From NCBI GenBank assembly GCA_963978095.1, contig CAXBQP010000056.1:1-18332 (forward strand): 18,332 bases of DNA, in the 5' to 3' direction. Under the pieces are notes generated by a model. It was not told where the DNA came from and searched no databases. It worked only from the letters and a program-made list of their open reading frames with translations. The position numbers were made by a program, and so were the translations under genes. Below are positions 1-3,255 of the stretch, piece by piece (the stretch's first letter is position 1; every line of letters starts with the position of its first letter). The stretch comes from an uncultured bacterium. Lineage in GTDB: Bacteria; Gemmatimonadota; Gemmatimonadetes; Gemmatimonadales; Gemmatimonadaceae.

Positions 1-83
1 ACCCCGTCCTAGAGACGCGGCCGCAGGACGCCGCAGGCGTCCGAGAGCGTCTCGTAGACGGGGTCCAGCCACGACCGCCCGGG
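1..83 (+). repeat. Palindromic coding module, copy B1 (left end cut off by the window)
   Basis: 1-77 is identical to 1330-1406 (82/83 nt through 83/1412). The offset is 1329 nt = 443 codons, so both copies encode PVLETRPQDAAGVRERLVDGVQPRP. Confidence 0.95.
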
Positions 84-2216
84 AGCAAACCGCACGAGGG
101 AAAACACACGAACGACATCCTCGAACGCGCCGGGCTCGACCCGCACGACCGGCGGGTTCGCACGATCGCCGACATCGTGCTCGGACTGCACCAAGCGCCG
201 CGCCACCGTGGGATCCATGTCGGTGGGTTCGTCCTGACGCACGAACCGCTCAGCACCGTCGTCCCCATCGAGCCCGCCGCGATGGACGACCGCACCGTCA
301 TCCAGTGGGAGAAGGACGACCTCGACCCCGTCGGGCTCGTCAAGATCGACCTCCTGGGACTCGGCATGCTCACCGTGCTGCAGGACTGCCTCAAGTACAT
401 CCGCGCCGCGCGCGGCGTCTCGATCGATCTCGGCCAGCTCGACATGCAGGACCAGTCCGTGTACGACGACCTCTGTCGCGCCGATACGGTGGGGGTGTTC
501 CAGGTCGAGAGCCGCGCGCAGATGAACACGTTGCCGCGCCTGAAGCCGCGCTGCTTCTACGATCTCGTCGTCGAGGTCGCGCTCATCCGCCCCGGCCCCA
601 TCCAGGGCGAGATGGTGCATCCGTATCTCCGTCGCAAGAACGGTGAGGAGCAGGTCACCTACCCGCACCCGTCGCTCGAACCGATCCTGAAACGCACGCT
701 CGGCGTCCCCCTCTTCCAGGAGCAGGGGATGCAGGTCGCGATCGCCGCGGCGGGCTTCACCCCGGGCGAGGCCGACCTGCTCCGCAAAGCGATGGGGCAC
801 AAGCGCAGCCGCGAGCGCATGGCGTCCATCTGCGAGAAGATGATCCGCGGGATGGAGACGAACGGGATTCCGTCCGACATCGCGCAGCGGATCTACAACC
901 AGATCAACGCCTTTGCCGACTACGGATTCCCCGAGAGCCACGCGGCGAGCTTCGCACTCATCGTGTATGCAAGTGCTTACTTGCGGCACTACTACGCCGC
1001 CGAGTTCCTGTGCGCCATGCTCAACGCGCAGCCGATGGGGTTCTACTCGGCGGGGACGCTCATCGAGGATGCGCGGCGGCACGGCGTGCGGGTGCTGCCG
1101 GTGGATGTCACGCGGTCGGCGTGGGACCATACGCTCGAGTGTCCGGACGGGCGGGTGATCGTGCCGCACGACGGCGTGATCGCGGTGCATGAGTCCCCGG
1201 CTGCTCCTTCGGTCGAGGGCGAAACGCCTCTACGCGATGCTCTCGGACCGCTCCGCGGTCCTGCGGCCGCATCGCTAGGAGGCGTCTCACCCTCTCCCTC
1301 CAGCGGAGGGCGGGGGAGGTCGGGGCTGGACCCCGTCCTAGAGACGCGGCCGCAGGACGCCGCAGGCGTCCGAGAGCGTCTCGTAGACGGGGTCCAGCCA
1401 CGACCGACCGGGCACGAGCGTCTCGTAGACGGGGTCCAGTCACGACCGACCGGGCACGGCAACGCGAAGAAGAAGGAGAGCGCACCAGCGGTACGACTCG
1501 GACTCCGCAGCATCCGCGGACTCGGGAGCAAAGCGCGCAGCAAACTCGAAGCCGCGCTCGAACAGGGACCGTTCACGAGCATCCAGGACCTCGTGCAACG
1601 GAGCGGGCTCGATCAACGCGCACTGCGATTCGTCGCCGAGAGCGGCGCGCTCGATCCGTTCGTGCAGGAGGAGAATCCGCATCGGCGACGGCGCGTGGCG
1701 TTGTGGCGGGTGCTCGAGGCCGCGCGCGTGGACCCCAACGCGCTGCCGCTCTTCACCGAACGCCCCGCGCCCCCCGGACTCCCGCCTCTCTCCGCCCCCG
1801 CCATCACCGAAGCCGACTATCGCCTCACCGGACTCTCATTGAACGGGCATCCCATGACGCATGTGCGCCCGCTGCTCGCGCCGAACGGGATCCTCACCGC
1901 GCGTGAGCTCATGCGGCAGCAGGACGGCGCGCGCGTGGGGACGGCGGGGCTCGTCATCTGCCGGCAGCGCCCGGGAACGGCCAAGGGATTCGTCTTCCTG
2001 ACGCTCGAGGACGAGACCGGGATGATCAATGTCGTCATCACCCCACAACGCTTCGAACAACAAGCGCTGCTGATCTCGCGCACCCCGTTGCTGCTCGTGC
2101 GCGGCACCCTGCAGATCGCGCAGCGGGTCGTGAACCTGCGCGCTGAGGAGATCTTGGCGCTCGGGGATGGCGCGGGCGTGGGAGCGGATCATGTCCGGAG
2201 CCACGACTTCCGGTGA
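1..2216 (+). CDS. dnaE2: Error-prone DNA polymerase DnaE2 (ImuC), 5'-truncated by the window edge, with in-frame palindromic insertions
   Basis: Frame +3 is open from position 3 to TGA at 2214-2216, so the listed 177 start is internal. Pol III alpha motifs: PRHRGIHVGGFV, KIDLLGLGML, GVFQVESRAQ, VALIRPGPIQG, LFQEQ, FADYGFPESHA, LNAQPMGFYS, AVRLGL, and OB-fold RQRPGTAKGFVFLTLEDETG. The C-terminus SHDFR matches the S-[RH]-D-F-[RH] tail typical of DnaE2. Confidence 0.95.
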   Translation, partial: PVLETRPQDAAGVRERLVDGVQPRPPGSKPHEGKHTNDILERAGLDPHDRRVRTIADIVLGLHQAPRHRGIHVGGFVLTHEPLSTVVPIEPAAMDDRTVIQWEKDDLDPVGLVKIDLLGLGMLTVLQDCLKYIRAARGVSIDLGQLDMQDQSVYDDLCRADTVGVFQVESRAQMNTLPRLKPRCFYDLVVEVALIRPGPIQGEMVHPYLRRKNGEEQVTYPHPSLEPILKRTLGVPLFQEQGMQVAIAAAGFTPGEADLLRKAMGHKRSRERMASICEKMIRGMETNGIPSDIAQRIYNQINAFADYGFPESHAASFALIVYASAYLRHYYAAEFLCAMLNAQPMGFYSAGTLIEDARRHGVRVLPVDVTRSAWDHTLECPDGRVIVPHDGVIAVHESPAAPSVEGETPLRDALGPLRGPAAASLGGVSPSPSSGGRGRSGLDPVLETRPQDAAGVRERLVDGVQPRPTGHERLVDGVQSRPTGHGNAKKKESAPAVRLGLRSIRGLGSKARSKLEAALEQGPFTSIQDLVQRSGLDQRALRFVAESGALDPFVQEENPHRRRRVALWRVLEAARVDPNALPLFTERPAPPGLPPLSAPAITEADYRLTGLSLNGHPMTHVRPLLAPNGILTARELMRQQDGARVGTAGLVICRQRPGTAKGFVFLTLEDETGMINVVITPQRFEQQALLISRTPLLLVRGTLQIAQRVVNLRAEEILALGDGAGVGADHVRSHDFR
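1211..1298 (-). repeat. Palindromic module, copy A (inverted, stems diverged)
   Basis: Minus strand reads gggagagggtgagacgcctc-CTA-gcgatgc-GGCCGCA-ggaccgc-GGA-gcggtcc-GAGA-gcatcgc-GTA-gaggcgtttcgccctcgacc, with the same segment lengths and loops as copy B. Confidence 0.88.
1296..1310. repeat. Short hairpin between modules A and B2
   Basis: ccctcc-agc-ggaggg, a perfect 6-bp inverted repeat. Confidence 0.55.
1318..1405 (+). repeat. Palindromic module, copy B2 (complete)
   Basis: ggtcggggctggaccccgtc-CTA-gagacgc-GGCCGCA-ggacgcc-GCA-ggcgtcc-GAGA-gcgtctc-GTA-gacggggtccagccacgacc. The outer stem 1318-1337/1386-1405 pairs at 19 of 20 positions, and there are two perfect 7-bp inner stems. Confidence 0.93.
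1374..1457 (+). repeat. 42-bp tandem duplication of the 3' arm of module B2
   Basis: 1374-1415 and 1416-1457 differ at one base (1398 C, 1440 T) and encode ERLVDGVQPRPTGH and ERLVDGVQSRPTGH. Confidence 0.95.
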
Positions 2217-2327
2217 CACCCGCGTCCGACCGCCTGACGCCGGGCAGCACGCGCGGTCGAGGGTACCCCGAACCCGCATCATCGAGTAGCCTTAGGGGTA
2301 GCAGGTGTCACCCCTACCACGCTCTCC

Positions 2328-2795
2328 ATGCGCCGTTCCATCGCTCTGCTCGCCCTGTTCGCCGTTGCCGTGATTGCCGCCTGCGATCACAGCGTGGTCG
2401 CGCCCGTCACGGTGGCCAACACGACGTTCGTCCCGTCACTCGGGATCAACCTGGCGAACTACACGTCGACGGCCGACGGGCTGTACTACCGCGACATCAC
2501 CGTCGGCACGGGTGCGGTGGCGGATACCGGACTCAAGCTCTCGGTCCGCTACACGGGCTACCTGAAGAACGGCATCGCGTTCGACTCCAATACCACGGCG
2601 ACGTCCGCGTTGCAGTTCACCCTCGGGCACGGCGAAGTCGTCCAGGGTTGGGACCTCGGTGTCAAAGGCATGCGCGTCGGCGGTCGTCGCAGCCTGCTGA
2701 TCCCCCCCGCGCTGGGCTACGGACAAAACGGCCGGGGCTCGGTGCCCGGGAACGCCGTCATGGTGTTCACCGTGAATCTCGTCAGCATCCCCTAG
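2328..2795 (+). CDS. FKBP-type peptidyl-prolyl cis-trans isomerase, probable lipoprotein
   Basis: GLYYRDITVGTG, VRYTGYLKNGIAFDS, GEVVQGWDLGVKGMRVGGRRSLLIPPALGYG; N-terminal signal peptide ending in a lipobox-like IAAC. Confidence 0.93.
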   Translation: MRRSIALLALFAVAVIAACDHSVVAPVTVANTTFVPSLGINLANYTSTADGLYYRDITVGTGAVADTGLKLSVRYTGYLKNGIAFDSNTTATSALQFTLGHGEVVQGWDLGVKGMRVGGRRSLLIPPALGYGQNGRGSVPGNAVMVFTVNLVSIP

Positions 2796-2805
2796 GGCGT
2801 CGCGG

Positions 2806-3255
2806 TCACCGCTTCTTGGCGAGGATGGTCCCGCGGCAGGTCGCGGCCCCGCAGTGGCAGGGGAACCGCTTCTTGGCAGCCGGCGTGTGGCGTTCTTCCA
2901 GCACGTACGCGTAATCGTAGGCGAGCTCCTCGCCCGGCTCGATCTCGCGGATCGTCTCGATCCAGATGCGACCGTCCTCGATCACGGCATCGCAGTTGGG
3001 ATCGCAGGAGTGGTTGATCCACCGCGCATCGTTGCCGTTCACCGCCGCGTCGATCACGACATCGTCGTCGATCGCGAACAGAAAGGTGTGGTGGCGTGCC
3101 GCATGATCGTCAGGATAGCGGGCGTCGGCCTCGGCCGGCGTGAGCCGCTCCCCCGCGTACTCGATCAAGCGGACGCCCTCCGGGATCCCCGCCCGAGCGA
3201 AGGCCCCGAACCCCTGCATGGGGGAGGCTCTGATTTCCACGCAGCACCAGTACAT
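2806..3255 (-). CDS. SET-domain protein-lysine methyltransferase with post-SET zinc motif (start may be GTG at 3240)
   Basis: GFGAFA, IEYAGE, ARWINHSCDPNC, GEELAYDY, post-SET CHCGAATCRG. Confidence 0.92.
   Translation of the reverse strand: MYWCCVEIRASPMQGFGAFARAGIPEGVRLIEYAGERLTPAEADARYPDDHAARHHTFLFAIDDDVVIDAAVNGNDARWINHSCDPNCDAVIEDGRIWIETIREIEPGEELAYDYAYVLEERHTPAAKKRFPCHCGAATCRGTILAKKR

Follow-up and report, generated by a model that had tools for sequence, protein, structure and literature searches.

Near the start of an 18,332-nt stretch of DNA from an uncultured bacterium of the Gemmatimonadaceae (an entire contig, called the window below), the gene dnaE2 contains two long hairpin-forming sequences, modules A and B, and these are an inverted doublet of a family of palindromic DNA elements of about 92 nt which, within the data searched, is confined to the Gemmatimonadaceae and Gemmatimonadota. 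The assembly that holds the window comprises 2.98 Mb in 101 contigs, with 66.6% G+C, and is 91% complete. We consider it probable, though with considerable reserve, that the family represents a low-copy palindromic element which folds as single-stranded DNA, has its core recognised by a putative protein, spreads, flips and decays locally at the imuB-dnaE2 locus, and is tolerated there as linker residues of the encoded proteins.

Module A (1209..1300) lies antisense to dnaE2, its canonical strand being the minus strand of the window, with the conserved core at 1234-1275. With the covariance model R1 it scored 97.3 bits on the minus and 36.9 bits on the plus strand. Module B (1316..1407, conserved core 1341-1382) lies in the sense of dnaE2, with the plus strand as canonical strand, and scored 97.7 bits there against 41.5 on the minus strand. 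Both modules also fold as DNA (see below), and the sequence between them leaves a short spacer (1301..1315, no strand) inside the doublet, which is longer in relatives, where the cores lie 107 to 327 nt apart. A repeat search gave the same arms (I1, 1202-1301 and 1315-1414, together with I2 and I4).

An earlier reading of the sequence only had proposed that the reverse complement of 1211-1298 aligns without gaps to 1318-1405, and we found 63 of 88 bases identical in that alignment. The positions which it took as unpaired are identical in 19 of 20 cases, the middle base of the triloop being the exception, and the compensating changes that it saw in the stems are real: of 34 stem pairs, 20 are unchanged, nine have both bases replaced and still pair in each module, two show one-sided changes that still pair, and three are mismatched in one module. 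Its stem lengths of 20, 7 and 7 bp stood in part. The nested hairpin was found by folding, but the 20-bp outer stems are imperfect, that of module A containing a tandem G.A/A.G mismatch and two G.T pairs. As single-stranded DNA, module B folded at -40.4 kcal/mol (z-score -8.0) and module A at -31.5 kcal/mol (z-score -5.6), with 0 of 200 shuffles as good in either case; the complementary strands folded more weakly, at -38.0 kcal/mol for B and -26.9 kcal/mol for A.

The alignment of the family contains 51 distinct copies in 92 columns without gaps. Its architecture consists of an outer stem of about 20 bp with free sequence, a variable 3x3 junction, a 7-bp middle stem, an asymmetric internal loop with GGCCGCA opposite GAGA, and a 7-bp inner stem closed by C-G under a GNA triloop. 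Standard pairs occupy 86.5% of the paired cells against 66.1% after shuffling, and none of 500 shuffles reached the observed value; when the 3' partner was slid by one to three columns, pairing fell to 34-42%. Double-sided changes were found in 30 of 37 pairs, with all 20 outer-stem pairs represented, and the covariation score was 0.494 compared with at most 0.126 in the slid controls. This upholds the proposal of a real family in which double changes preserve the hairpin, while the two discrete module types proposed with it dissolve, the stems forming a continuum instead. Near the base of the outer stem, columns 5-6 and 87-88 hold a tandem G.A/A.G mismatch in most copies.

Sequence-specific loops had also been claimed, and they hold for the GGCCGCA/GAGA internal loop and the GNA triloop, but not for the CTA/GTA segments, which vary across copies (for example TTC/GAA, CCC/GGG and TCC/GGA) and pair in 49% of cells. 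At the tip, C-GNA-G, the closing C-G is invariant, the G is present in at least 90% and the A in 100% of the 51 copies, and the tip reads GCGNAGC in 46 of 51. For C-GNA-G and GCGNAGC, exceptional stability as DNA triloop or mini-hairpin motifs has been reported (PMC3201870, PMC13037366).

The conserved core is read in all possible ways by the host genes. Sense copies in dnaE2 and imuB have the core in phases 0, 1 and 2, giving SGRRTAQRSES, RPQDRAAVRE and AAAGPRSGPRAS, and antisense copies in the same three phases give SRT..RSCGR, MLSDRYAVLRP and LGPLRGPAAAS. In the window, module A is translated as LRDALGPLRGPAAAS and module B as RPQDAAGVRE. Because one core is translated as six different peptides, in three frames per orientation, selection on the peptide cannot hold its nucleotides constant, and the exclusion of protein-level selection in the sequence-only reading was correct. 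It is extremely improbable that the inserts were selected as peptide modules adding a function to DnaE2 and ImuB, with the nucleotide palindrome incidental. All copies within dnaE2 or imuB do sit in an open frame and in interdomain linkers, and length differences between strains are multiples of three, as that explanation expects; the element itself is free of stop codons in six of six frames. The six unrelated peptides already contradict it, however, identical cores also occur between genes, and the core shows no synonymous variation, whereas the flanking dnaE2 sequence of 13 site-2 copies (300 nt, 78 pairs; the site is described below) is 83% identical overall and 65% identical at third codon positions.

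Wobble pairs indicate which strand of the element may fold. In the canonical-strand stems we counted 60 G.T against 20 A.C pairs in related, non-independent copies, and the excess was found both in sense copies (37 against 17) and in antisense copies (23 against 3), so the wobble follows the strand of the element and not the transcript. Across copies, the covariance model scored 85-99 bits on the canonical strand and 33-45 bits on the opposite one. The canonical DNA strand, rather than the mRNA, is thus probably what folds, as judged from these sequence patterns. A structured RNA in the transcript, serving as regulatory hairpin, processing site or small RNA with its loops as RNA-protein or RNA-RNA contacts, seems to us quite improbable. 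The RNA fold is strong too (1195-1465 at -167.5 kcal/mol, z-score -6.1, as two separate hairpins), G.T pairs, G.U in RNA, are tolerated, and intergenic copies lie at gene 3' ends or between convergent genes, like REP-like RNA stabilisers and terminators. But about one third of the in-gene copies are antisense to the host mRNA and keep the same strand-specific loops, the G.T excess in those antisense copies tracks the canonical strand and not the mRNA sense, the element is flipped in place between species, and there is no U-tract 3' of the hairpin.

Comparison with Rfam, which the sequence-only reading had suggested, also gave the RNA explanation no support: over 900-1800 there were eight matches up to an E-value of 10, all far under the gathering score, and the best was a plant microRNA hairpin model at 24.3 bits against a gathering score of 128. 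For a catalytic nucleic acid, one of the options considered at first, we found no pointer, and no known ribozyme core was recognised by eye or through Rfam. The motif had been regarded as undescribed, and this is true in so far as no Rfam family reaches its gathering score, but palindromic repeats that are read through in dnaE2 and other repair genes had been reported in 2013 (PMC3733652).

Further copies, for which the sequence-only reading had proposed a search of the genome and its relatives, were found in this assembly, in members of the same genus and in other Gemmatimonadota. A loose descriptor applied to the dnaE2 loci of the genus-mates gave 22 matches, 19 of which are full hairpins and three spurious. 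A pattern scan of named genome records returned at least 143 unique matches, and we counted as full hairpins those with a perfect inner stem and at least six of seven middle-stem pairs. Among the matches listed, at least 67 unique full hairpins lie on 43 contigs, whose titles all name Gemmatimonas, Gemmatimonadaceae, Gemmatimonadetes or Gemmatimonadota. Among those listed, 76 failed this threshold: 73 are on contigs of other phyla and resemble chance matches in G+C-rich DNA, and the three on Gemmatimonas contigs are one chance match, one decayed real copy and one copy cut by a contig end. Metagenome contigs contained 63 unique copies, 62 of them full hairpins. The record, metagenome and genome collections overlap, and these tallies are therefore not independent. 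With the covariance model, seven of 151 sampled Gemmatimonadaceae genomes are carriers with one to four copies each, and an anchor consisting of the inner hairpin was matched in 27 of 401 genomes of the family, some of the matches being unrelated hairpins; the genus-mate G028 has up to seven anchor matches. The core pattern had no match in viral contigs.

Two further kinds of hairpin were noticed aside from these copies. On contig G023:C6, two places 50 kb apart (L184, L185) hold near-identical intergenic doublets of a diverged variant scoring 49-60 bits, which retains GGCCGCA, has a shortened inner stem and carries the 3' loop GAGA after an altered stem; the family therefore also has purely intergenic, duplicated members. 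On G173:C50 (1065-1141, L191/L218) there is a different hairpin of 77 nt with the same inner GGACCGC-GAA-GCGGTCC and other loops and stems, which could be distantly related or have come to that mini-hairpin independently.

The host open reading frame (ORF) in the window (3..2216, plus strand) comprises the last 737 codons of dnaE2, coding for the error-prone alpha subunit of DNA polymerase III, and is open at the contig start. Besides its translation, the assignment comes from the Pfam domains DNA_pol3_alpha, DNA_pol3_finger, HHH_6 and an OB fold, and from the top NCBIfam match, NF004225 'error-prone DNA polymerase' (E-value 4e-232), whose 773 bits stay under the cut-off of 939 bits because the protein is partial. 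The doublet lies in a variable linker of DnaE2 (1191..1481, plus strand, 'site 3'), which we delimited in a protein alignment of 15 orthologous DnaE2 of the genus. Orthologs align to the query only at residues about 1-411 and 489-737, leaving about 412-488 unmatched; since they match on both sides, 1191-1481 is an expanded linker, which in insert-free orthologs has about 28 codons. Insert-free DnaE2 proteins of the genus are 1095-1134 residues long, and other orthologs have 1315, 1340 and 1600 residues.

A third copy (1..78, plus strand) stands at the contig start in canonical orientation, its 5' arm cut off by the contig end. The covariance model R1 gave it 73.2 bits over model positions 15-92, truncated at the 5' side. 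It equals 1330-1405 without difference over 76 nt, is translated as PVLETRPQDAAGVRE, and sits in a second variable linker of DnaE2 ('site 2'). The repeat probably broke the assembly at window position 1, the contig beginning within a hairpin copy. All three copies of the assembly are in dnaE2, and since the assembly is without the 5' half of dnaE2 and without imuB, this count is a lower bound. The genus-mate G028 has an additional insert in the PHP domain ('site 1').

Contexts were counted with insert-free DnaE2 and ImuB sequences as references. In the genome records, among the matches listed (at least 67), 39 copies are in dnaE2, eight are inside imuB or immediately upstream of it, and 20 have other contexts; 30 of the 39 dnaE2 copies listed are flanked by the gene on both sides, and nine by the gene on one side of a short locus. 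The 63 metagenome copies divide into 38 in dnaE2, four in imuB and 21 elsewhere. The main place in dnaE2 is site 2, about residues 470-496 of the insert-free ortholog, others being about residues 89-98, about 832-855 and the N-terminal part. Copies in the genes thus appear as extra linker residues between domains of DnaE2 and ImuB, and among the contexts that could be annotated (several short loci could not) no Pfam-supported ORF except imuB and dnaE2 contained a copy. The annotatable copies elsewhere are intergenic and mostly adjoin the 3' ends of genes. In six loci the copy separates the 3' ends of FTCD and map; others follow metG and precede an M23 peptidase gene, stand 2 kb downstream of dnaE2 with a desaturase gene on one side and an M19 peptidase gene on the other, neighbour amidohydrolase genes, or follow acrB, CNNM and AP_endonuc_2 genes.

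Two candidate explanations of these places were rejected. An 'AAG/CGT' subgroup seemed to lie at the start of a conserved ORF of 788 codons; this ORF has no homologs and no Pfam match, and proved to be map-adk-secY read in antisense, which places the copy between FTCD and map. Insertion into genes that are transcribed during DNA damage (an 'SOS window') is disfavoured: among 41 other contexts, none that could be annotated is in or next to a recognisable SOS or repair gene. As a separate observation, a conserved protein-like insert of about 55 residues, which is not a hairpin, adjoins site 2 in seven of the 13 orthologs that cover the site (G020, G028, G019, G003, G008, G002 and G007; alignment columns about 760-830), with the motif …DPF.PE..DA.GPAGYSK.L.AK…MDMM.GTHAV.RMR.ER….

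The concentration on one locus raises another explanation, which we hold unlikely but still credible, that the module is a cis-acting DNA-level site of the imuB-dnaE2 (SOS mutasome) locus, free in place and orientation. While the locus is single-stranded or supercoiled, it would fold into a hairpin or cruciform, which a host protein would bind to control expression, recombination or stability of the cassette. Such a function fits the strong conservation of the core better, the core being constant across genera while the stems and the synonymous sites of the host diverge, and being retained when the orientation flips. In the genus, ten of the 14 cassettes of this type contain one or more copies or remnants, or have them immediately upstream, and their places vary between dnaE2 sites 1, 2 and 3, the inside of imuB and the region ahead of imuB. 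No coding host besides imuB and dnaE2 was found, and the genome G103, in seven contigs, carries its single copy in dnaE2. The element, its constant core included, also stands, however, between unrelated genes such as FTCD/map, metG/M23 peptidase, amidohydrolase genes and others. Four of the 14 cassettes have no element, some copies are decaying (a remnant in G026, a mismatched inner stem in G003), the anchor is found in only 27 of 401 family genomes, and no candidate binding protein is encoded beside the element.

The copies keep a strict arrangement and are inverted, duplicated and deleted where they stand. All neighbouring pairs not more than 450 nt apart have the order reverse complement of the module followed by the module, in 13 of 13 genome-record pairs listed and 13 of 13 metagenome pairs, although the collections overlap and many of these pairs are orthologous. 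In dnaE2 of G028, three doublet units of about 400 nt occupy sites 1, 2 and 3 and are homologous through their spacers; the closest likeness is between units 1 and 3 and argues for copying within the gene. At site 2, G022 has a full doublet and its close relative G026 retains only the last (3') arm of the second module. Two records whose flanks are homologous at a dnaE2 site have the same hairpin, down to its wobble positions, in opposite orientation. The window lacks the desaturase/M19 doublet, which a syntenic, 85%-identical contig (L245) has. Many copies are flanked by arm sequences duplicated in tandem. Three metagenome contigs differ from the window around the doublet: one (run X4) skips 1415-1477 and has seven other letters instead, a net loss of 54 nt with the frame kept; one (run X2) has 12 nt fewer at 1462-1475, again in frame; and one (run X1) parts from the window at 1377 and continues in another copy of the family.

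In the window itself, the 3' part of module B is present in two tandem copies of 42 nt, or 14 codons each (1374..1457, plus strand; 1374-1415 and 1416-1457; repeat search family D1, 98% identity), which are a product of slippage. In-frame tandem repeats were also seen in hairpin linkers of other genomes, namely a 9-nt unit five times in G022 (G022:C43, about 395-450), a 27-nt unit three times in G028, 'AEHG' in G014 and 'DRGSKIE' in G008; the dnaE2 linkers that bear hairpins are general hot spots of slippage. A different observation concerns G127:C54 (1318-3054, L190), where the dnaE2 frame ends after 577 codons exactly at a hairpin module and the next gene, on the other strand, encodes a type II/IV secretion ATPase; the junction marks either a rearrangement that broke at the hairpin or a chimera of the assembly.

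For the single-stranded DNA element that we favour, the following mechanism may be drawn. The hairpin would form as single-stranded DNA or as a cruciform rather than in mRNA, and the constant core would be the binding or cutting site of a protein acting in trans, either a recombinase or transposase or a hairpin-binding protein of the host. Selection for pairing, correction templated by the hairpin (template switching), or the two together would keep the stems complementary. Copies would spread mainly locally, within and beside the imuB-dnaE2 cassette, and in coding DNA the element persists as extra linker residues of dnaE2 and imuB.

Several observations weigh against this explanation. A mobilising enzyme was not found by tests directed at Y1_Tnp (PF01797): the domain was detected in none of five carriers while six of 14 control genomes were positive, in the sample of 151 genomes it occurred in one of seven carriers against 34 of 144 non-carriers, and none of 20 Y1_Tnp loci contains a module; the genomes are incomplete metagenome-assembled genomes, so absence of Y1 is not proven. 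One genome flagged as unpublished is included in the ortholog comparison (G006) and one in the Y1_Tnp tallies of the larger sample (G086), and neither carries any of the claims. Likewise, about 130 loci showed no autonomous element with matching ends, though no systematic search for [-,+] pairs enclosing a transposase gene was made. No clean target-site duplication appeared in the comparisons of G022 with G026, of the G028 units, and of the window with L245, the flanks being variable linkers or local tandem repeats. Copy number is very low for a repeat that should proliferate, at one to eight per genome, and the seven-contig genome G103 has a single copy, in dnaE2. The restriction of coding hosts to imuB and dnaE2 is not accounted for. 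A strand-biased mutation process could produce the G.T excess, whose counts come from copies that are not independent.

Conservation of the core bears on the same question. In the alignment of 51 copies, pairwise identity averages 90% for the core and 46% for the outer stems, and since decaying selfish copies would not show a core kept so much better than the stems, this fits a host function equally well. Core constancy in that alignment is partly by construction, the search pattern having fixed 19 core positions, but positions which the pattern left free (A29/T64, C32/G61, A42/T54 and A49) are also constant in 51 of 51 copies. The search of the 401 family genomes was anchored on the inner hairpin alone and so checks the constancy of the loops free of this ascertainment bias; among its 34 unique matches, 26 have exact GGCCGCA and GAGA, eight are unrelated and none is intermediate.

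It is also conceivable, though rather unlikely, that a mechanism tied to the mutasome draws or keeps hairpins at this locus, either through template switching by ImuB-DnaE2 near their own genes or because the locus needs a DNA hairpin with this core as a control site responsive to single strands or damage. If true, this would explain why imuB and dnaE2 are the sole coding hosts in the Gemmatimonadaceae and why the core is fixed while position and orientation drift. It would also explain how unrelated repeat families reached dnaE2 in several phyla (PMC3733652).

Downstream of dnaE2, an ORF of 233 codons (2213-2914, plus strand) overlaps the dnaE2 stop by 4 nt and is syntenic in an 85%-identical metagenome contig. 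It had no Pfam or NCBIfam match. From the sequence, the 4-nt overlap looks like translational coupling.

Cassettes of error-prone polymerases drive damage-induced mutation, and hence adaptation, in many bacteria. Palindromes of selfish appearance inside mutasome genes have been a puzzle since 2013 and are still without explanation. The Gemmatimonadota family is an unusually clean case, with its low copy number, two adjacent coding hosts, loops independent of the protein, and signs that one strand folds. The defined core of 42 nt could serve as bait for the recognising protein, and the natural filled, empty and inverted alleles would allow the effect of the insert on mutasome expression or activity to be tested. 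A literature search found no account of a hairpin repeat in Gemmatimonas or Gemmatimonadota or of this motif, which is no proof that none exists.

The nearest precedent is the description of repetitive extragenic palindromes (REPs) tagged by GTAG or CGTC within replication and repair genes, including dnaE2, by Di Nocera, De Gregorio and Rocco in 2013 (PMC3733652). There, REP-bearing dnaE2 genes are given for Opitutus terrae (residues 934-971), Sphingomonas wittichii (166-246), Rhodopseudomonas palustris (128-157) and Erythrobacter litoralis (175-203); in many species, replication and repair genes are the sole coding sequences that bear REPs, for which the authors gave no settled reason (PMC3733652). 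Like those intragenic REPs, the modules are palindromes, often in inverted dimers and read through in frame, and the places of REPs in dnaE2 are comparable to our sites 1 and 3 (PMC3733652). REPs as described there have 20-40 nt, high copy number, mostly intergenic location and a GTAG or CGTC end tag (PMC3733652). Our module, in contrast, has 92 nt, 34 modelled base pairs, a constant internal loop and one to eight copies per genome, and so differs from REPs and REPINs in size and copy number. GTAG occurs at the junction (columns 68-71, which are variable) in only seven of 51 copies, unlike an end tag, and whereas REPs are mainly extragenic, about 70% of the module copies are in the two mutasome genes; the phylum differs as well.

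REPINs are doublets of REPs that form hairpins and are mobilised by RAYT. The inverted doublets, found in 26 of 26 neighbouring pairs, are a likeness to REPINs. With both REPINs and the TIRYT/TIRtron repeats (TIRYT as given in PMC3733652), the doublet shares two inverted hairpin units, a short spacer and a hairpin of single-stranded DNA as presumed substrate. Unlike in REPIN and TIRYT systems, no Y1 transposase (RAYT, IS200-type) was found associated with the module, its units are three times longer and its copy number is low. Compared with MITEs (miniature transposable elements with inverted repeats), the doublet is similar in its 200-450 nt, long terminal inverted repeats, lack of own coding capacity and presence/absence polymorphism, but no target-site duplication or autonomous partner was found in the loci compared, and single modules are also common.

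The Rickettsia palindromic elements (RPEs) are palindromes of about 100-150 bp which occur in many unrelated genes of an alphaproteobacterium with an obligate intracellular life, are inserted there in frame and end up as additional surface segments of the proteins; no transposase is known for them. The module is like an RPE in being a palindrome in frame that is read through, a likeness judged by description, and is unlike it in having only two adjacent genes as coding hosts. With d(GNA)/GCGNAGC mini-hairpin DNA it shares the tip C-GNA-G, and although such DNA is a structural motif and not a genetic element (PMC3201870, PMC13037366), the analogy suggests that the tip may be built to nucleate a DNA hairpin. 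Judged by these comparisons, the element, though without a Y1 transposase, would resemble REPs, REPINs and RPEs, and is of a kind already known from dnaE2 of other phyla.

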